DNA of 64,000 nt from Planctomycetota bacterium (GTDB lineage: Bacteria; Planctomycetota; UBA1135; UBA2386), in the NCBI GenBank assembly GCA_965223545.1, contig OZ245006.1:7040001-7104000 (forward strand). The letters are read 5' to 3'. Below are positions 5,000 to 28,347 of the stretch, one piece after another; within the stretch, counting starts at the first letter, position 1; each line of letters begins with the position of its first letter. A program made the translations under genes and the position numbers. The notes under the pieces are model-generated. The model ran no database searches and was not told the DNA's origin. It saw nothing but the letters and a program-made list of their open reading frames with translations.

Positions 5000-5089
5000 G
5001 ACGTACGGAGTCAGGCTCGATTTTCTCGCTTGGCGGCGGTGCATCCGCACCGCCGCCAAGCGAGAAAATCGAGCCTGACTCCGTACGTC
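5000..5089. repeat. Perfect 43-bp-arm palindrome (REPIN/MITE-like)
   Basis: 5000-5042 is the exact reverse complement of 5047-5089; 4-nt loop ATCC. Confidence 0.92.
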
Positions 5090-19293: not shown

Positions 19294-19616
19294 CCGCCCG
19301 TCCGGCGGCGCACCGAGGGCATTGCCGGCGCGGCCGCGCGGAGATCCGGCGGCTTTGCCCGGCCGGTGGCGACTTTCTTGGCTGCCGGTTCTCGTTGTCC
19401 GGCAGTGGTTTGTCCCGGTCTCCACAAGTTGCTCAACTCTCGCCCACAGGGCACCGGCTTGTCTGCCATCGCCGATCGGCTACGACACAGAAGAACGGTG
19501 TTGCGCGCTCTCCGACACCGTCCGTCATGCCGCCGGTGGGCGCTGTTTGAGGCGGGCGGTGTGTGGGCGGAGTGGCGCTCAAGGTTGGGTGCTCCCCAGG
19601 TTGTCGAGGGTGGCGG

Positions 19617-20969
19617 ATGGTGGATTTCAGTGCGGGGCCCGAAGGGCGTGGTGTGCCGCGGAACATGGAGGCGGAGCGCTCGGTGCTGGGTGCGCTCATG
19701 CTGCACAGCTCGGCCGTGGCGGACGTCAGCCACGTCGTCAAACCGGAGGATTTTTACCATCCACCGCATCAGCTGATCTTCCGCGCCATCGTCGAGACCT
19801 ACGACCGTGCTTCGCACACGGACGTGATCTCGGTGGAGGAGGACCTCGACCGCAAGGGGGAGCTGGTCGAGGCGGGGGGGCGCGATGCCCTCCTCGACCT
19901 GGCGCAGTCCGTCGTGTCGGCGGCCGCGGTCAGCTACCACGCCGAGATCGTGCGCGAGAAGGCGATCGCGCGGCGGCTGCTGGAGACGTGTCTGGACCTG
20001 TCGCGCCGCGCCTACGAGAACAGCGCGACCCCCGCCGAGCTCCTCGATGAAGCCGAGCGGCGCATCTTCGAGATCGCCCGGGTCAAGACCGCGGCCGATG
20101 CTGCCTCGATCTCCGAGCTGATCCAGCAGACCTTCGACAAGCTGGAGAAGCTGCGCGACCGCGCAGGGCGGATCACCGGTGTGCCGAGCGAGTACTTCGA
20201 TCTCGACGACATGACGTCGGGTTTCCAGCCCGGCGAGCTGGTGATCCTGGCGGCGCGGCCGTCGATGGGCAAGACCTCGTTCGCGCTGAATCTCACCGAA
20301 CGCGCCTCGACGCGCGGCTACGGTGTCGCGCTGTTCAGCCTCGAGATGTCCAGCCAGCAAATCATCCAGAACATGCTGTGCGCGCGCGCCCAGATCGATG
20401 GCCAGGCGCTGCGGCGAGGCGCAATTACGGTCGATCAGCTGGCGCACCTGCAGGACATGGCGAGCGCTCTGTACGAGGCGCCGATCTTCATCGACGACAC
20501 CGCCGGCCTCACCGTCAGCGCGGTGCGGGCCAAGTGCCGGCGGCTGAAGCAGAAGCACGACATCAAGATGGTGGTGATCGACTACTTGCAGCTGCTGACC
20601 ACCGGCGGCAGAGTGGAGAGCCGACAGCAGGAGATCTCGACGATCTCCCGCACGTTGAAGGCGGTGGCGCGCGAACTCGAGGTGCCGGTCATCGCCCTTT
20701 CTCAGCTCAACCGCGACGTCGAGGCGCGCGACAACAACCGGCCGAGGATGAGCGATCTGCGCGAGTCGGGCGCCATCGAGCAGGACGCGGACGTGATCAT
20801 GCTGTTGCACCGCGAGGAGTACTTCAAACCGACCGAGGACAACCGCGGGCTGGCGCAGGTGATCATCGCCAAGCAGCGCAACGGCCCGACCGGAGAGGTG
20901 ACGTTGCGCTTCTTCCGGCAGTTCATGCGTTTCGAGAACTTCCAGCGCCGGCCGGAGCCGGTGGGTTAG
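19617..20969 (+). CDS. dnaB: Replicative DNA helicase
   Basis: EAERSVLGALM, LAARPSMGKT, FSLEMS, IDYLQL, LSQLNR, DLRESGAIEQDAD, AKQRNGPTG. Confidence 0.97.
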   Translation: MVDFSAGPEGRGVPRNMEAERSVLGALMLHSSAVADVSHVVKPEDFYHPPHQLIFRAIVETYDRASHTDVISVEEDLDRKGELVEAGGRDALLDLAQSVVSAAAVSYHAEIVREKAIARRLLETCLDLSRRAYENSATPAELLDEAERRIFEIARVKTAADAASISELIQQTFDKLEKLRDRAGRITGVPSEYFDLDDMTSGFQPGELVILAARPSMGKTSFALNLTERASTRGYGVALFSLEMSSQQIIQNMLCARAQIDGQALRRGAITVDQLAHLQDMASALYEAPIFIDDTAGLTVSAVRAKCRRLKQKHDIKMVVIDYLQLLTTGGRVESRQQEISTISRTLKAVARELEVPVIALSQLNRDVEARDNNRPRMSDLRESGAIEQDADVIMLLHREEYFKPTEDNRGLAQVIIAKQRNGPTGEVTLRFFRQFMRFENFQRRPEPVG

Positions 20970-20978
20970 AGATCGAGC

Positions 20979-23522
20979 ATGGCGCAGGTGGTGGGCGGGG
21001 CGTTCCTGCCGGCGCTCGGCTTGGCGATGGCGGTGCTGGGCGCGCCGCTTCGCGCGCAGCCGGTTCCTGCACAACCGACCCCGCCGGCGGCGGGCCAGCA
21101 GGATCCCCGCCAGCAGGTCGAGGGGCTGCCGATCCGCTCGATCCGCATCGAGGGGGCGCGCGACGAGGAGGCCGTCCGCCGCCTGTTCCAAACCAGGGTG
21201 GGTGAGCCGCTGCGGGGTGCGGTGGTCGCCGAGGATCTGCGCAATCTGTGGAAGCAGCAGCGCTACCAGGTGACCGCGTGGGCGGCACCGACGCCGGACG
21301 GCGGCGTGGCCGTCACCTTCGAGGTGGTCGAGCCGTTCAGCTACGAGAACGTCGAGTTCTTGGGCATGGAGCGCTACACCGAGCAGGAAGCGCGCCAGAT
21401 GATCGACATCATCGGCGCGCAGCGCACCACCAGCACCGATGCGGACGACCACCGGCGCATCCTGTTGCAGCGCTACCGGCGCGACGGCTACCACTACGTC
21501 AGCATCCAGCTCGAGAAGGACGAGGAGACCAGCACGCTGCGCTTCGTCATCGACGAGGGGCCCGAGGTCGTCGTCCGCGAGGTCCACATCATCGGCAACA
21601 CCGCGTTTCCGGCCGACGCGCTGTGGGGACCCGACCTGATCGGCGGCGCCGAGCTGGAGAGCAAGCCGGCCAACTTGATCCGCGGCGTGCCCTTCAGCGA
21701 GGAGGTCGTCGACGAGGACGTGCAGCGCTTGCAGTGGTTCTACCGGGCGCGCGGCTACCGGGATGCGCGCGCGTTCCTCGCCGCGGTCGAGTTCACGCAA
21801 GCCCAGGACGAGGTCGATCTGACCCTTCGCGTCATCGAAGGACCGCGCTACAAGGTGCGCAGCGTGTCCATCGAGCACTTCGACGGGCTCGAGCCGACGG
21901 CGGAGCACCTGTATCCGCCCGAAGAGATCCTCGCCCGGCTCCAGCTCAAGCCCGGCGACGATTACGACCGCGACCTCGTCAACCGCGACAAGCGCGAGAT
22001 CGAGCGCTACTACGGCGAGCGCGGCCATCCGATGCAGGGTCGCTACGGCGCGGCGCCGTTGGTCGACGCGTTCGAGTGGGCGACGCAGAACTGGATGCAG
22101 CCGCGGGAGACGTTCGTCGAAGGCGCCGCCGAGATCGACCTGGTCTATCAGATCGTCGAGGGGTCGCCCAAGACGCTGCGCGACGTCACCATTCGCGGCA
22201 ACACCGACACCCAGGACCGGGTGGTGCGGCGCCGCGTGCAGGTGCGGCCCGGCGAGCAGCTGGACCTGAGCCAGGTCGACCGCTCGATCCAGCTGCTGTC
22301 GTCGCTGCGCTACTTCAACGACCCCGACACTCTGGTCGGGCCGCGCTTCGAGCTGCGGCCGGTGAGTGGCTCGCCCGATGTCGTCGACCTCGAGATCGAG
22401 GTGGCGGAGGGTGACACCGGCTCCTTCATCTGGGGAGCCGGTGTCAGCACCGGCGCCGGCGTGCAGGCGCGGTTCCAGCTGACCAAGCGCAACTTCGACC
22501 TGTTCCGCCTGCCCAGCTCTCCGGGCCTGTTCACCCTGTTCGACGAGATCACCACCAACAAGGCCTTCCACGGCGCCGGCCAGGAGCTCGAGCTGCTGGC
22601 GGCGCCCGGTACCGAGATCAGCACGTTCCGGCTGTCGTTCTACGAGCCGGACTTGTTCCGCGATCACGTCGACACCATCGGGCTGCGCGTGCAGGGGTTT
22701 CGCAGCATCCGCATCCTCGACTCGTTCGACAGCGACTCGCGCGGCCTGATCGTCGGCCTGCAACGCAACTTCACCGAGTCGGTGTCCCTCGGCGTCTCGC
22801 TGCGGCAGGAAACCACCGAGGTCGAGAGCGTCGACGCCAACGCCCCGGGCATCGTCTTCGACGCCGAGGGCCAGACCGAGATCCGCAGCGGCGCCATCCA
22901 GCTGTCGCTCCGGGACCTCGACGACTTCTTGTTTCCCAGCACCGGGTACGACGTTCTCGCCAGCGCCGAGATCGCCGGCGGACTGCTCGGCGGCGAAGAG
23001 GATTTCTACAAGCTGCGGTTGCGCGGTGAGTGGTTCCACCGCCTGGCGGTCGACGAACTCGAGCGGCCGCACGTGCTGCACCTGCGGCAGGACTTCGAGT
23101 ACGGCCACGCCTACTCGAACACCGACGATCTGTTCCTGACCGAGCGCTTCTACATGGGCGGCACCAATCTCCGTGGCTTCGACCAGCGCCGCGCCGGCCC
23201 GACGCAGTTCGGCCGTCCCCTGGGCGGCGAGGCCATGCTGCTGCTGCGCTCCGAGTACCTGTTCCCGCTGGTGTCCACCAGACAACAGCGCGCCATCCGC
23301 GAGGTCGAGCTCCTGCGCGGCGTGGTGTTCGCCGACGCGGGCCTGCTCGGCACCGGCATCGACGACGCCAGCTTCGGCGAGCTGCGCGCCAGCGTCGGAT
23401 TCGGGTTGCGGATCCACGTGCCGATTCTCGGTGTCCCCATCGCCCTCGACTTCGGCTTCCCGATCTCCTACGAGGGCACCGACGACCGGCAGGTGTTCAG
23501 CTTCTCGCTTTCGTCGCGCTGA
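20979..23522 (+). CDS. bamA: Outer-membrane protein assembly factor (BamA/Omp85)
   Basis: Signal peptide, POTRA repeats (IRGNTDTQDRVVRR), ERFYMGG.NLRGF, ASVGFGLR, PIALDFGFP. Confidence 0.92.
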   Translation: MAQVVGGAFLPALGLAMAVLGAPLRAQPVPAQPTPPAAGQQDPRQQVEGLPIRSIRIEGARDEEAVRRLFQTRVGEPLRGAVVAEDLRNLWKQQRYQVTAWAAPTPDGGVAVTFEVVEPFSYENVEFLGMERYTEQEARQMIDIIGAQRTTSTDADDHRRILLQRYRRDGYHYVSIQLEKDEETSTLRFVIDEGPEVVVREVHIIGNTAFPADALWGPDLIGGAELESKPANLIRGVPFSEEVVDEDVQRLQWFYRARGYRDARAFLAAVEFTQAQDEVDLTLRVIEGPRYKVRSVSIEHFDGLEPTAEHLYPPEEILARLQLKPGDDYDRDLVNRDKREIERYYGERGHPMQGRYGAAPLVDAFEWATQNWMQPRETFVEGAAEIDLVYQIVEGSPKTLRDVTIRGNTDTQDRVVRRRVQVRPGEQLDLSQVDRSIQLLSSLRYFNDPDTLVGPRFELRPVSGSPDVVDLEIEVAEGDTGSFIWGAGVSTGAGVQARFQLTKRNFDLFRLPSSPGLFTLFDEITTNKAFHGAGQELELLAAPGTEISTFRLSFYEPDLFRDHVDTIGLRVQGFRSIRILDSFDSDSRGLIVGLQRNFTESVSLGVSLRQETTEVESVDANAPGIVFDAEGQTEIRSGAIQLSLRDLDDFLFPSTGYDVLASAEIAGGLLGGEEDFYKLRLRGEWFHRLAVDELERPHVLHLRQDFEYGHAYSNTDDLFLTERFYMGGTNLRGFDQRRAGPTQFGRPLGGEAMLLLRSEYLFPLVSTRQQRAIREVELLRGVVFADAGLLGTGIDDASFGELRASVGFGLRIHVPILGVPIALDFGFPISYEGTDDRQVFSFSLSSR

Positions 23523-23614
23523 GCGTCGGGGGCCGAGGATGTTCGAGCGGCGAGCGGCACAACCTGTCGGAAGGCTCGATGCCGCTGGAACTTCGACAAC
23601 GCAACTCCCGGAGG

Positions 23615-23982
23615 CTTCCATGAGAGGGGCGATCCCGTCAACAGCTCTTTGTCTGTGGATCTGTTCTTCTTGAGAATCTGGGCGCCTTGGCGCCGCCCTG
23701 CGCGACAAGCTTCGGACTCCGCAGGCTTCCATACGCACTCTGATGGCCTCGTCCGAGACCGGTGCACGATGAGATCCGTCCGACCCGGCGCAGCTTTCTT
23801 CCATGAGAGGGGCGATCCCGTCAACAGCTCTTTGTCTGTGGATCTGTTCTTCTTGAGAATCTGGGCGCCTTGGCGCCGCCCTGCGCGACAAGCTTCGGAC
23901 TCCGCAGGCTTCCATACGCACTCTGATGGCCTCGTCCGAGACCGGTGCACGATGAGATCCGTCCGACCCGGCGCAGCTTTCT
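23615..23982. repeat. 183-bp tandem duplication of the IS1111 right end
   Basis: 23615-23797 repeated at 23798-23980. Confidence 0.93.
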
Positions 23983-24060
23983 CGATAACGGCCTCGAGGG
24001 CCAAGCCTCCGGTCGCTGTCGCCGGGATCGGGCGGTGAGTCTTCAGCAGTGCAGGAGCGG
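23830..24060 (-). ncRNA. Putative bridge/seek RNA of the IS1111 element (ends approximate)
   Basis: Guide-like segments matching target flanks (24004-24012, 23981-23989) and element ends (23955-23958, 23909-23915), each pair separated by a hairpin. Confidence 0.7.
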
Positions 24061-25068
24061 CATCACGCCAGGTTCCTCCACGGTATTCGGTTGGTTGGGG
24101 GTGGGGCGATCATGGTTGGGTCATACCGCGGTGTGGGCAGCTACGCGGTCGCTGTTGTGGAGTGGGTCGTAGACCAAGCCATGACGCCACAGCCGATGCA
24201 GCAGTAGCGCGAGCTTGCGGGCAACCGCGACCGCCGCGCGTTTCCTCGCGCCGCGGCCGCCGCGGGCGATCAGGCGTTGCCCGAAGCGCCGGAGGTCACA
24301 GTCCTTGCCGAACGGGCCGAGGATGTAGTGCGCACACTGCACCAGAAGCCGTCTCAGATAGCCGTCGCCAGCCTTGCTGATCGACAGCTCCGGATTGCTG
24401 TCGCCCGACGCGAAGCTCTTTGGGCACAAGCCGAGCCAGGAGCCCACGCGGCGGCTTTCGGCGAATCGTGTCGGATCCTCGATCGTCAGCACGAACGCGG
24501 TCGCTGTGACCGGCCCCACGCCGTTGACTTGCTGCACGACGGCGACCTCGGGGTATCGCTCGCGGCTCGCCTCGACGAGCGCCTTGTCGAGCTCGTCGAT
24601 CCGGCGGGACAGGTCGGCGATCAAGTCCAGCAGCGGCTCCGCCGCAGTGAGTAGCAGGACCGGCATGGACTCGCGAGCTCGCTTCGGGAACGCCGCGGTC
24701 GATGCCGACGGCAGCCGGACGCCGAAGCCCTTCGCCAGGCTCCGGACCTGCTGCACTGCCATCGTCCGCATCCTCACCAGCAGGTCGCGCGCACGAATGA
24801 CCGACAGGTCGGCCTGTGCCTGCTCGCTGCGGTGGTGGATCGTGCCGAGCAACTCGGGCATCCCTGCCTCCAGGCGAGCCAGGGTCTCGGCATCGCGCCG
24901 GTCGGTCTTGCGAGGATCCTTGGCGATCAGCTGCACTCGGCGCGGGTCCACGACGTGAACGTCGTAGCCCTCCGAGCGCAACCGCCGAGACATCCAGGCC
25001 GACTGCGAGCCGTAACTGTTCCGGCAACCACGTCTGCAAACGCTCGAGTCGTTCGCCACGATGCGGCC

Positions 25069-25398
25069 ATGTCGAAGCGAGCAAGTCGTCGCCGTGAGAT
25101 CCGGCAGGTTCTCGCGCTCCGCGAGCAGGAAGGGTTTTCGCTGCGTGCGCTCTCGGAGCGGTTCGGTATCCCGATCGGGACGCTGAGTTGGTGGTCGCAT
25201 CGGTTGCGATCGGAGGAGAGCACTGGGTTCGCGGAGGTCCGAGTCGTCGATCGCGATGGTCGGGGCCGGACGAGTAACGACGAGGGCGAGAGCTCGAGCC
25301 TTGTGCGGCTCAGGTTCCCGGCGGGCGTCGTCGCGGAGTTCGAGGGCGCGATTGCTCAAGACATCGCGTACCGCTTGCTGGACTCTGTGGCCGACTGA
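25069..25398 (+). CDS. tnpA: IS66 accessory protein TnpA
   Basis: HTH (SLRALSERFGIPIGTLSWW), FAEV motif; stop overlaps the next start. Confidence 0.82.
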   Translation: MSKRASRRREIRQVLALREQEGFSLRALSERFGIPIGTLSWWSHRLRSEESTGFAEVRVVDRDGRGRTSNDEGESSSLVRLRFPAGVVAEFEGAIAQDIAYRLLDSVAD

Positions 25399-25811
25399 TG
25401 CTGGCCTTCCCAGCGGGCGTGCGCGTGTACGTCGCCAACGAGCCAACCGACATGAGGAAGTCGTTCGACGGGCTGAGCGCGATCGTCCAGCACAGCTTTC
25501 ATCGGGATCCGTTCGATGGCGACGTCTTCGCGTTCTTCAACCGGCGTCGCGATCGCGTGAAGATCTTGTTCTGGGATCGCAACGGTTTCTGGATCTCGAT
25601 GAAGCGACTCGAGCGCGGCACGTTTGACAGTTGGCGTCCCAAGAGCGGCGACGCCACACATGTCGAAGTCGAGCGCGCACAGCTCGTGATGTTGCTCGAA
25701 GGGATTGATCTGAAATCCGCCAAGTTTCGTCGGCATTACTCGCGCTCTGTTCGTATCAATGGTCGCGATGGGCGGTCGCAAGCAAACGGTCAACGTCGAC
25801 GCACTGGATGA
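25398..25811 (+). CDS. tnpB: IS66 accessory protein TnpB
   Basis: PTDMRKSFDGL, FFNRRRDRVKILFWD.NGF...KRLERG. Confidence 0.95.
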   Translation: MLAFPAGVRVYVANEPTDMRKSFDGLSAIVQHSFHRDPFDGDVFAFFNRRRDRVKILFWDRNGFWISMKRLERGTFDSWRPKSGDATHVEVERAQLVMLLEGIDLKSAKFRRHYSRSVRINGRDGRSQANGQRRRTG

Positions 25812-27381
25812 GGCGCAGCTACGTGCCTTGATCCCGGATCTGCTCACGCAGATCTCGTCGCTGAAGTCGCAGATGTCCGACCTTCAGCGCATGCTGTTCG
25901 GTCGCCGCTCGGAGAAGAGCCGCTACATCGACCCGCGACAGCTGCTGCCGTTCGCGCAAGAGGCTGTAGAGGAAGCGGGAGCCGACGCCAAGGCGGCCGA
26001 AGAAGAGGCCGAAGAGATCACCGTCCCCGAGCACAAGCGCAAGCGCACCAAGCGACGCAAGGACTTCCCAGAGCATCTTCCGCGGCAACGCTCCGTATTC
26101 ACGATCGAGGGCGAGGACCTGCTGTGCCCTTGCTGCGGCAACGGCCGTCGGGAGTTCGGCGAAGAGGTCTCGCAGGAGCTCGAGCGCATCGAGCTCTCGT
26201 TCGTCCACCAGATCGTGAGGAAGAAGTACTCCTGCGCGACCTGTCAGGGCTACGTCGTCGTCGCCGCGGGCCCCACCCGAGTCCTCGACAAAAGCATCCT
26301 CGGCCCCGGCTTCCTTGCGCAGATCATCTTCGACCGCTTTGCCAACCACATGCCGTACGCGCGGTTGGAGAAGAAGTACGCAGCCGAGGGGCTCAGCCTG
26401 TCGCGTAGCGTCCTATGCACTTCGGCGATGCGCTGTGCCGAGCTCCTGAAGCCCGTGTTCGATGCCCATGTCGAGCAAGTTCTCGAGAGCCTCGACACCT
26501 CCGTCCTGCAGGTGGACGACACCTACGGCAACCAGCGCAACGGCCGAAACCCCGGACAGAAAAAGATCCACGTGTGGGCGTGGCGCGATCAACACGCCGG
26601 GGTTTTCTACACCGCTACGGACTCACGCAATCGCGGCAGCCCCAAAGAGGTCTTGGGCGACCGCGGTGGTCGGTTGCAGTGCGATGGCCATGACTGCTAC
26701 AGCGATCTCGATCCAACCAGCATCGCGCGCATCGGATGCTGGGCACACCTTCGTCGCTACTTCGTGAATGCGCGGAAGCTCGGCGACTCGACCACGGAGA
26801 AGGCTCTGGGCTGGATCGGCAAGCTGTTCGCGATCGAGAGCGTCGCCAAGAAGGGCAAAGATGGTCGACCCTTCACGGATGACGAGCTGGTCGAGGTCCG
26901 TCAGCGCGACTCTCGCCCGATTGCGAACGCGCTCAAGGCTTGGCTCGAGCAGATGCACATCGACCAGCCGAGCCTCCCGAAGGGGCCGCTCATGGAGGGA
27001 GTTCGCTACGGGCTCAACCAGTGGCCTGCTCTCGAGCGCTTCCTGACCGATGGCCGCATCCGCGAGATCTCGAACAACGGTTGCGAGCGTGCTCTGCGTG
27101 CAGTCGTGATCGGCAAGAAGAACTGGCTCTTCTTCGGATCCGAGGACGGCACCCAAGCTTCACTCATCCTCTTGAGTCTCGTCCAGTCGTGTCGAGAGCA
27201 TGGCATCAGCCCGCTGCTCTACCTGCGGGATGTGCTTCACGCGATCTCGACCACTCCTGCCTCCCAGGTCGGTCAGCTGACTCCGCGTGGCTGGATGCTG
27301 GGACGGCAACGGCGTGCCCAGATCGCCAAAGCCGACAACGCGATCGACAACATCGTGCGTCAGTTGTTCGTGGGCTCGTAG
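25759..27381 (+). CDS. tnpC: IS66 DDE transposase TnpC
   Basis: LFGRRSEK, CPCC...CATC, LQVDDT, LQCDG, GCWAHLRRYF, ISNNGCERALR, KKNWLFFGS. Confidence 0.95.
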   Translation: MVAMGGRKQTVNVDALDEAQLRALIPDLLTQISSLKSQMSDLQRMLFGRRSEKSRYIDPRQLLPFAQEAVEEAGADAKAAEEEAEEITVPEHKRKRTKRRKDFPEHLPRQRSVFTIEGEDLLCPCCGNGRREFGEEVSQELERIELSFVHQIVRKKYSCATCQGYVVVAAGPTRVLDKSILGPGFLAQIIFDRFANHMPYARLEKKYAAEGLSLSRSVLCTSAMRCAELLKPVFDAHVEQVLESLDTSVLQVDDTYGNQRNGRNPGQKKIHVWAWRDQHAGVFYTATDSRNRGSPKEVLGDRGGRLQCDGHDCYSDLDPTSIARIGCWAHLRRYFVNARKLGDSTTEKALGWIGKLFAIESVAKKGKDGRPFTDDELVEVRQRDSRPIANALKAWLEQMHIDQPSLPKGPLMEGVRYGLNQWPALERFLTDGRIREISNNGCERALRAVVIGKKNWLFFGSEDGTQASLILLSLVQSCREHGISPLLYLRDVLHAISTTPASQVGQLTPRGWMLGRQRRAQIAKADNAIDNIVRQLFVGS

Positions 27382-28347
27382 CCCAGCCAGCTACGGACGG
27401 TCACCGTCGTGGCCGGCGCCGGTGCCGACACCCGGTGGCCGAAGTTTCTGTTCATGCGCCGGTTCGGCGCGGCGCGAAGAACGTGCGTGCCGGAACAGTT
27501 ACTGCGAGCCGGCCTCGAGAGCGACTCTGGCGCCCGGGAAGTCGCTCAGCGCCTTCGAGAGCGCTGTCGGCGTCGTCGGGAAACTGCCCCGCGCAACGAC
27601 CGTCCGCGACGCGTCCAGTGCGCAGTAGTGGATGTTCCGATCGCCAATGTCGAGACCGATGGTCACGGGGGAGGTCTGAGCGGTAACTTTGGTCATGGGT
27701 CGATCTGCTCCTTTGATTTTGCAGCGCCATTGTGTGGCGACTGCGTCGGAGGGATCGACCCTCTCATCCCATCTCGAAAGCAACACTGGCGTCTGCGCTC
27801 AGCGCGGCCGCCGGCGACCGCGGGACCCGCGACCGACGCTCGGGTCGCGGAATGCTTCGTGTTTGGTTGCGGCCTCGGCCGCGCTGAGCCTCCGGCGCCT
27901 CGAATCTTCGAGCTTCGACAACATTTTCGAGGCGACGCCGCTGACATGGCAACGTCGCCGCCGCGCCGGAGGCTCGGAGAGACAGTGCCTCCTGGCTCAG
28001 CGCGGCGGCGGATGTGTCCGGCCTTCCAATCCGCTCCGGCAAGAGCGGCATCCGAGTTTGGTTGCGGCCGTGGCCGCGCTGAGCCTCGGGGTCCGCAAAT
28101 CTTCGCGCGGCGACAACCTTTCGGAAGGCTCGATGCCGCTGGAACTTCGACAACGCAGCTCCCGGAGGCTCGAAGACAACACTGGCCTCCGGGCTCAGCG
28201 CGGCCGCCGGCGCCGGCGACCGCGGGACCCGCGACCGACGCTCGGGTCGCGGAATGCTCGGTGTTTGGTTGCGGCCTCGGCCGCGCTGAGCCTCGGGGTC
28301 AGCTGCCTGAGCTGCCGCGCTGAAGTGCGCGGGCGTCGCCATCCAAG

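Follow-up and report, generated by a model that had tools for sequence, protein, structure and literature searches.

Does the non-coding region 3' of a DEDD transposase gene template an RNA that could pair with both the ends of its own element and the site into which that element inserts? The gene lies on the minus strand of a 64,000-nucleotide stretch of DNA (the window), and the predicted RNA region follows it on the 3' side. An earlier note had read this locus as the template of a bridge or seek RNA in an IS1111-type element, and every string that it quoted was recovered at its position. Comparison with relatives indicates that this reading largely holds: the locus is the predicted template of a bridge/seek RNA in a 1476-bp IS1111-type element with an AG core. 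The RNA region is also overlapped by an exact 183-bp tandem repeat (23615-23797 and 23798-23980) that the note did not mention, and whose origin is a second question. The element is laid out as follows.

23615..27772, minus strand: whole window copy of the IS1111-type element, 4158 bp
27751..27767, minus strand: left sub-terminal inverted repeat, 17 bp, 7 bases from the left junction with the core counted
24121..27696, minus strand: DEDD recombinase gene, split by IS66 (358 aa in the intact copies)
25012..27502, plus strand: IS66 element, 2491 bp, inside the recombinase gene
25004-25011 and 27503-27510: 8-bp duplication GGCTCGCA flanking IS66

The genome (8.1 Mb, two contigs) carries three further copies besides the one in the window. 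These are 1476 bp each and mutually identical, with an open frame of 358 aa, 76 bases upstream of the gene and 323 downstream. Their ends read AG ATGGG, a 17-bp inverted repeat, the body of the element, the same repeat and GGA AG, so that the sub-terminal repeats (one mismatch) are extended by AG+ATGGG on the left and GGA on the right. The window copy equals the intact copies except for IS66 and 183 additional bases, and its length decomposes into 1476 bp, 2499 bp (IS66 with one target duplication) and the 183-bp duplication. Apart from these four copies and the duplicated unit, a profile search of this genome turned up neither a solo RNA nor a mini-element.

The IS66 element interrupts the gene within an 8-bp target duplication whose two flanks were both located, and the window copy is dead in cis owing to it. 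The earlier note was right about this insertion, but removing IS66 and one target duplication would not restore a wild-type element, because the right end is duplicated and the 183 extra bases would stay. Reconstruction of the recombinase, which the note had proposed, is unnecessary since three intact identical copies exist in the genome. IS66 itself is present in seven full-length copies and therefore was recently active; one copy (G000:C1:7684212-7689121) is split by about 2.4 kb. Two inverted IS66 copies (G000:C1:1795342-1812690) have swapped their 8-bp flanks, as an inversion of the intervening 12 kb would leave them. Beside the element, bamA (TIGR03303) has its stop about 90 bases before the element's edge, and the same interval (window 19563-23522) holds a gene that we take, from its sequence, to be a DnaB-like helicase gene; both are directed towards the element. 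Elsewhere in the window lies a perfect 43-bp inverted repeat with a 4-base loop (5000-5089).

The recombinase matches NF033542 with 230 bits (cut-off 140), as well as PF01548 and PF02371. The catalytic positions D16, E61, D99 and D102 are D/E/D/D in 58/58 of the compared proteins, and S264 is S or T in 58/58 (one S>T). By its domains the protein classes as an IS110/IS1111 DEDD recombinase, with a RuvC-like DEDD domain and a C-terminal PF02371 domain carrying the serine. Its closest named relatives come from Planctomycetota plus other MAGs and metagenomes. Annotated plasmid IS110 proteins share 32-34% identity with it, and IS621 (E 5e-8) and ISCro4 (E 3e-8) are distant matches. The clade is large (5,669 proteins or more at E<=1e-60), and no member named in ISfinder was found for it; the searched part of the PMC11208160 supplements returned one passage that looks unrelated.

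All four element copies occupy the same base, in the same orientation, of one dispersed REP-like repeat.

27773..27781, minus strand: left target half GCTTTCG plus left core AG, within the REP-like repeat
23608..23614, minus strand: right target half CCTCCGG, running on into the REP-like repeat

The expectation of the earlier note that other copies would sit in TCGAGCCTCCGG-like sites was borne out by 3/3 of the other genomic copies. The repeat is hairpin-rich and has 106 matches to a 131-bp unit, 94 of them of at least 80 bp; the genome contains 14 Y1_Tnp matches. Contig C1 holds 61 empty exact TCGAGCCTCCGG sites, all inside the repeat by inspection. When the 788,004 AG sites of C1 were scored against the two target guides, the best score was 12/14, reached by 64 sites, 61 of which lie in the repeat. 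Every site in C1 differs from the guide-derived 16-mer at two or more positions, and the left-target guide has a mismatch at one covarying position in all four real targets. Hairpin-rich REP-like units also cluster round the element (window 27780-28330 and 23530-23614); an empty target lies among them at about 28160-28180. A further, distant IS110-family transposase (35% over 69 aa) is present in 11 copies in C1, for example at G000:C1 8012259-8012465, 7272037-7272243, 7013706-7013912 and 6848761-6848967. Several of these copies are 1-2 kb or less from sites of the same repeat family, so this second element may use that repeat.

The predicted RNA has two loops, for which we use the guide names of earlier work (PMC11187229, PMC11208160, PMC11208158, PMC13626964, PMC12288879, PMC13604230, bioRxiv 10.1101/2025.10.25.684509).

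23895..24040, minus strand: predicted bridge RNA, conserved core, ends inferred from the alignment
24004..24012, minus strand: right-target guide CCGGAGG-CU, CCGGAGGCU, z 19
23990..24002, minus strand: inner hairpin (GGCC) of the target-binding loop
23981..23989, minus strand: left-target guide GUUAUCGAG, covarying part UAUCG plus core AG
23979..23980, minus strand: predicted handshake dinucleotide of the target loop, AA
23951..23956, minus strand: right-donor guide CUCAU-C, z 9.6
23909..23915, minus strand: left-donor guide AUGGAAG, same sense as the right-end terminus plus core
23907..23908, minus strand: predicted handshake dinucleotide of the donor loop, CC, as at right target +1,+2

Whether these segments are guides was judged by covariation with their DNA partners across relatives. 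The 134 loci examined include 120 with a transposase match and 78 with both ends called, and a profile search recovered the RNA near full length in 104/117 downstream regions. These 104 aligned RNAs gave 58 distinct guide sets, this element included, once 36 with no end, flank or anchor and 4 with unequal cores were left out and 6 duplicates were collapsed. In agreement with the proposal of a bispecific RNA 3' of the gene with an AG core, the guides covary with their DNA partners. The right-target guide CCGGAGGCU is, as had been noted, the exact complement of AG+CCTCCGG and pairs with the top strand of the core plus right target; it averages 5.74 matches versus 3.20 permuted (z 19; best of four offsets on both sides). 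The left-target guide scores 4.97/7 versus 2.13 permuted (z 18) and the left-donor guide AUGGAAG, also correctly identified in the note, 4.98/5 versus 4.70 (z 11). For each of these three guides 0/5000 permutations scored as high, and swapped-slot controls gave z -1.2 and -0.5. The assignment of GUUAUCGAG as left-target guide also stands, since the segment covaries, but its first two bases do not (0.43 versus 0.42 and 0.28 versus 0.25), and the guide is thus effectively 5 nt plus core.

Where the right end or the core departs from the consensus, the left-donor guide departs with it in 8/8 cases, including the cores CG and GG, and one row of the 58 sets is discordant (L106). The natural core variants CG and GG belong to L091 and L084, whose guides are changed to match. 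Eight registers were tried for the right-donor guide. CUCAU (23952-23956) gives z 9.6, the runner-up 3.0, and the covarying register lies five bases further 3' than the AUCU chosen in the earlier note. CUCAU-C pairs with the left-end start ATGGG and core G; its signal stems from left-end bases 3-5, while left-end bases 1-2 and the core A show no covariation with it across the 58 sets. After clustering into 43 and 26 groups (70% and 60% protein identity), z remains 12-16 for the target guides, 7-8 for the right-donor guide and 7-9 for the left-donor guide. At the level of sequence, covariation is established for all four guides and for the stems.

The stems were assessed on 30 of the 104 RNAs, picked by eye as the closer ones. 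Two-sided changes occur in 17/25 stem pairs, and 93% of stem cells are paired, versus 82% in shuffled and 27-45% in slid alignments. The stems thus covary, and the guides lie in the loops. When this RNA is folded alone, however, only about half of the target-guide positions stay open (unpaired 0.49-0.53), and the fold defines the donor loop poorly. The single-sequence fold of the whole region is not exceptional (z -0.9), and a search of Rfam returned only a chance P10 match (17.6 bits versus 37).

Some relatives depart from this layout. L042 (1599-1620) has only 18 bases from the stop codon to the right inverted repeat and no RNA profile match downstream; its RNA may be elsewhere or be supplied in trans. 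In L060, the template after the transposase stop ends inside the left-target guide rather than at AG and runs into unrelated coding-like sequence, which may be a chimera. In L135 (about 930-1110), some 180 bp bounded by a 7-bp direct repeat interrupt the template within its right-donor guide; we considered this split RNA as a second duplication and rejected it, as it is an unrelated insertion of about 180 bp. L136 (1518-1700) and L137 (1375-1530) retain remnants consisting of the 3' half of the donor loop and the right end only, with no related transposase in the stretch examined.

The bases that follow the guides carry a further signal. In IS621, the two bases after each loop's 3' guide pair with partner DNA once strands have been exchanged (PMC11208158, PMC13626964). 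In our set, the target-loop handshake is AT in 45/58, matching the left-end start. Of the two bases behind the left-target guide, the first is the same as the first base of the left end in 52/58 (z 6.8); the second is nearly invariant and uninformative. In the donor loop, the dinucleotide 3' of the left-donor guide varies with right-target +1 and +2 (z 2.8 and 4.3), and its two bases jointly give z 4.8 in 43 groups and 3.2 in 26; the control positions +3,+4 give z 0.1 and -0.6. The bases that follow the left-donor guide resemble the right target at 6/7; this was set aside, as only the first two covary and the remainder is coincidence. Handshake pairs average 0.38 of 4 before exchange and 2.76 after it, and are more numerous after exchange in 52/58 sets; for this element the counts are 0 and 3. 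The left-donor-guide template with its next bases (23902-23915, minus strand) matches the real right junction at 13/14, making it a second internal junction mimic.

These signals bear on the reversed guide order of IS1111, which PMC11187229 suggests may mean different mechanics. Read on the opposite strand, target and donor show a CT core in place of AG and the guide order of IS621, which suggests that the reversed order likely reflects an interchange of strands without a change in chemistry. Since it is the bottom-strand guides that precede the handshakes, that strand is predicted to be cut and exchanged first. The handshake signal makes this point testable, with the same mechanics predicted. 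We found no handshake analysis of IS1111 in the parts of the literature searched, though PMC11208160 Extended Data Fig. 10c or two Science 2026 papers could show one.

We conclude that the predicted bridge RNA very probably matches the repeat with its target loop and the element ends with its donor loop, and likely steers the DEDD recombinase to their shared AG. By analogy with IS621 and ISEc11, the element would circularise, and a promoter formed at the junction would drive recombinase and RNA. The conserved TTGAC of this putative promoter occurs within the last 40 bases of 51/58 right ends and 27-28 bases from the end in 43. The target loop would open the repeat, with the right-target guide on the top strand and the left-target guide on the bottom, and the donor loop would open the circle junction. 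The handshake bases 3' of the left-target and left-donor guides would then favour the exchanged state. The mechanism would be that of IS621 with the strands swapped, acting on a CT core of the opposite strand. No circle-junction joint was seen in 4/4 aligned contig sets, and such contigs drop rare forms. Of 17 runs listed, none is an RNA holder, which speaks neither for nor against expression.

The 183-bp repeat adds a second right end to the window copy.

23798..23980, minus strand: first 183-bp unit, with the 3' stem strand, donor loop, predicted -35, inner right inverted repeat and inner core AG
23819-23824, minus strand: predicted -35, in the first unit
23803-23819, minus strand: inner right inverted repeat, within the first unit
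23615..23797, minus strand: second, identical 183-bp unit, with a second donor loop, outer right inverted repeat and outer core AG
23620-23636, minus strand: outer right inverted repeat, within the second unit
23788..23808, minus strand: duplication junction ...CATGGA AG AAAGCTG, right-end core joined to the bases after the left-target guide

The extra unit starts just after the AG (23981-23982) that ends the left-target-guide template and stops at the right-end core. That start is the most target-like of the 85 AGs on the strand (7+2 of 14), its left score being perfect by construction. No inverted repeat lies beside the left-target-guide template. The junction occurs once in the genome, from which the reciprocal deletion is absent.

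On balance we favour, by a narrow preference, a duplication made by the recombinase. In the simplest route, the true right junction would undergo an excision-type exchange with the left-target-guide template, a mimic of a left junction. Such an exchange between sister copies, or by way of a 183-bp circle, would yield the observed tandem. Since guide, core and handshake copy the left junction, the exchange would satisfy the left-target, right-target and left-donor guides and would dispense only with the right-donor guide, the weakest of the four. An insertion-type self-targeting followed by collapse of a long repeat would give the same junction; it was ranked lower because it offers 2/7 right-target pairs and an adverse handshake. 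The literature searched, much of it in excerpt, yielded no report of self-targeting or tandem duplication with IS110/IS1111 elements. The nearest precedent in it is ISPpu9, which forms alternative circles at shared AGs (PMC12288879). Like the present copy, ISPpu9 has an internal extra end sharing an AG, from which alternative circles are possible. Its extra module is multicopy and mobile with its own left and right boxes and does not need Ssr9, whereas the extra unit here begins at a guide template, lacks a left end and is found a single time. Work on CazIS110-1 (bioRxiv 10.1101/2025.10.25.684509) shows that a junction (LD to new right target) can form on its own, a possible duplication route. 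Those assays used cognate targets, whereas the junction here is natural and lies where the element's own guide is encoded.

Replication slippage or repair at the 2-bp AG microhomology, without a recombinase, is a less probable origin that we regard as somewhat unlikely. In its favour, the duplication is seen as one event only, and C1 contains six other perfect tandem duplications of 195-621 bp. Analogues were also not found elsewhere. No second RNA match is present in 108 related loci with an RNA match; a junction pattern searched in 401 genomes gave 2 one-mismatch matches versus 1 for a reversed control, none near a related transposase or RNA; and viral contigs gave 0. The pattern fits the clade consensus only and would miss this genome's own junction. 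Against slippage, both ends of the unit fall on functional cores, one the exact right-end core and the other 1 of 85 internal AGs, and the homology that they share is AG alone.

It is improbable that the repeat is an assembly artefact, or reflects free 183-bp circles instead of a chromosomal repeat. The locus sits in a four-copy repeat, and the read-derived contigs that we aligned to an intact copy (runs X1, X2 and X3) come from a single study that may be the assembly's source. The contig of X3, from the same sample as X1, runs through without a break, and no joint across the duplication is listed. However, the contigs of X1 and X2, two different samples, break at that AG. Depth there in X2 is 70.5 versus 57.6, a ratio of 1.22 that fits one extra unit per four copies. 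X1 also contains a 213-nt record with 183 aligned, as a closed loop of 31-mers would be expected to give. Our reading of the repeat remains a chromosomal duplication, likely made by the recombinase.

For the RNA, a narrower role is quite improbable, in which a short target-loop RNA (seekRNA) acts alone, the protein reads the ends through the inverted repeats and the donor matches are inherited likeness. In the available text of PMC11187229, the predominant RNAs of ISEc11, ISPa11 and ISKpn4 are 82-96 nt and contain the target matches, and for CazIS110-1 a target-loop-only RNA is given as 90% of transcripts (bioRxiv 10.1101/2025.10.25.684509). Ends and donor loop are also inherited together within an element, and the donor loop of this one folds weakly. 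Yet the donor complementarity is tied to one register (z 9.6, against 3.0 or less at the seven other offsets), rare end and core variants are mirrored in 8/8 cases, and the donor-loop handshake tracks the target, a sequence outside the element. We can hardly credit the register of the earlier note, AUCU (23955-23958) as right-donor guide: AUCU is the exact complement of AGAT in this element and covariation of short donor guides would be hard to see, but the slot has z 1.0 (0.8-1.0 clustered), reads ACCC in 24/58 sets and holds an exact 4-nt complement in 8/58. A two-loop bridge RNA with the CUCAU register thus remains our preferred reading.

Judged by its sequence, the locus appears to work like the IS621 bridge system while showing every IS1111 feature tested. 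The IS1111 features are the 7- and 3-base extensions, a long 3' non-coding region, a top-strand match 5' of the bottom-strand match and a single target and orientation; those of an IS621-type RNA are two loops, four covarying guides and handshakes that favour the exchanged state. PMC11187229 defines IS1111 by sub-terminal inverted repeats with 7- and 3-base terminal extensions. Its ISEc11, ISPa11, ISKpn4 and ISPst6 share with this element these ends, the long 3' non-coding region, the order of strand matches and the GL-P----SG motif, and ISPa11 likewise has a repeat as target. The present element differs in belonging to another sequence clade; its best relatives among annotated plasmid proteins share 32-34% identity. 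Covariation makes both donor guides and the handshakes readable here, which the sections consulted of PMC11187229 do not report.

IS621 and ISCro4 (PMC11208160, PMC11208158, PMC13626964; PDB 8wt6, 9t56) similarly have two loops, four guides, a dinucleotide core, handshake bases after each loop's 3' guide and D-E-D-D plus serine, and IS621 has a REP-type target. Unlike in those elements, the RNA here lies in the right end instead of the left, the inverted repeats are 17 bp and 7 non-core bases lie on the arm of the 5' target guide. The guide order of IS621 appears only with target and donor read on the opposite strand, and the proteins are only distantly related (E 3e-8 to 5e-8). ISPpu9/ssr9 (PMC12288879) also combines an AG core with a REP target.

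The basic bridge RNA system is already known, hence the surprise is moderate; the additions are the corrected right-donor register, the handshake signal and the self-joined duplication. The system is fully specified and recently active, with three identical intact copies and 61 empty exact target sites. Its relatives offer natural AG, CG and GG cores, and the clade is large and far from characterised enzymes. We tentatively suggest, at somewhat under even chances, that this clade runs the IS621 mechanism on the opposite strand and that the RNA's own template, since guide, core and handshake copy a junction, is a latent recombination site that was used naturally here. If the duplication was made by the recombinase, such an enzyme can act on the very gene that encodes its bridge RNA. 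Self-recombination would then offer a way to arrive at multi-loop RNAs and mini-elements, and any bridge construct used in cis would carry an inherent off-target.
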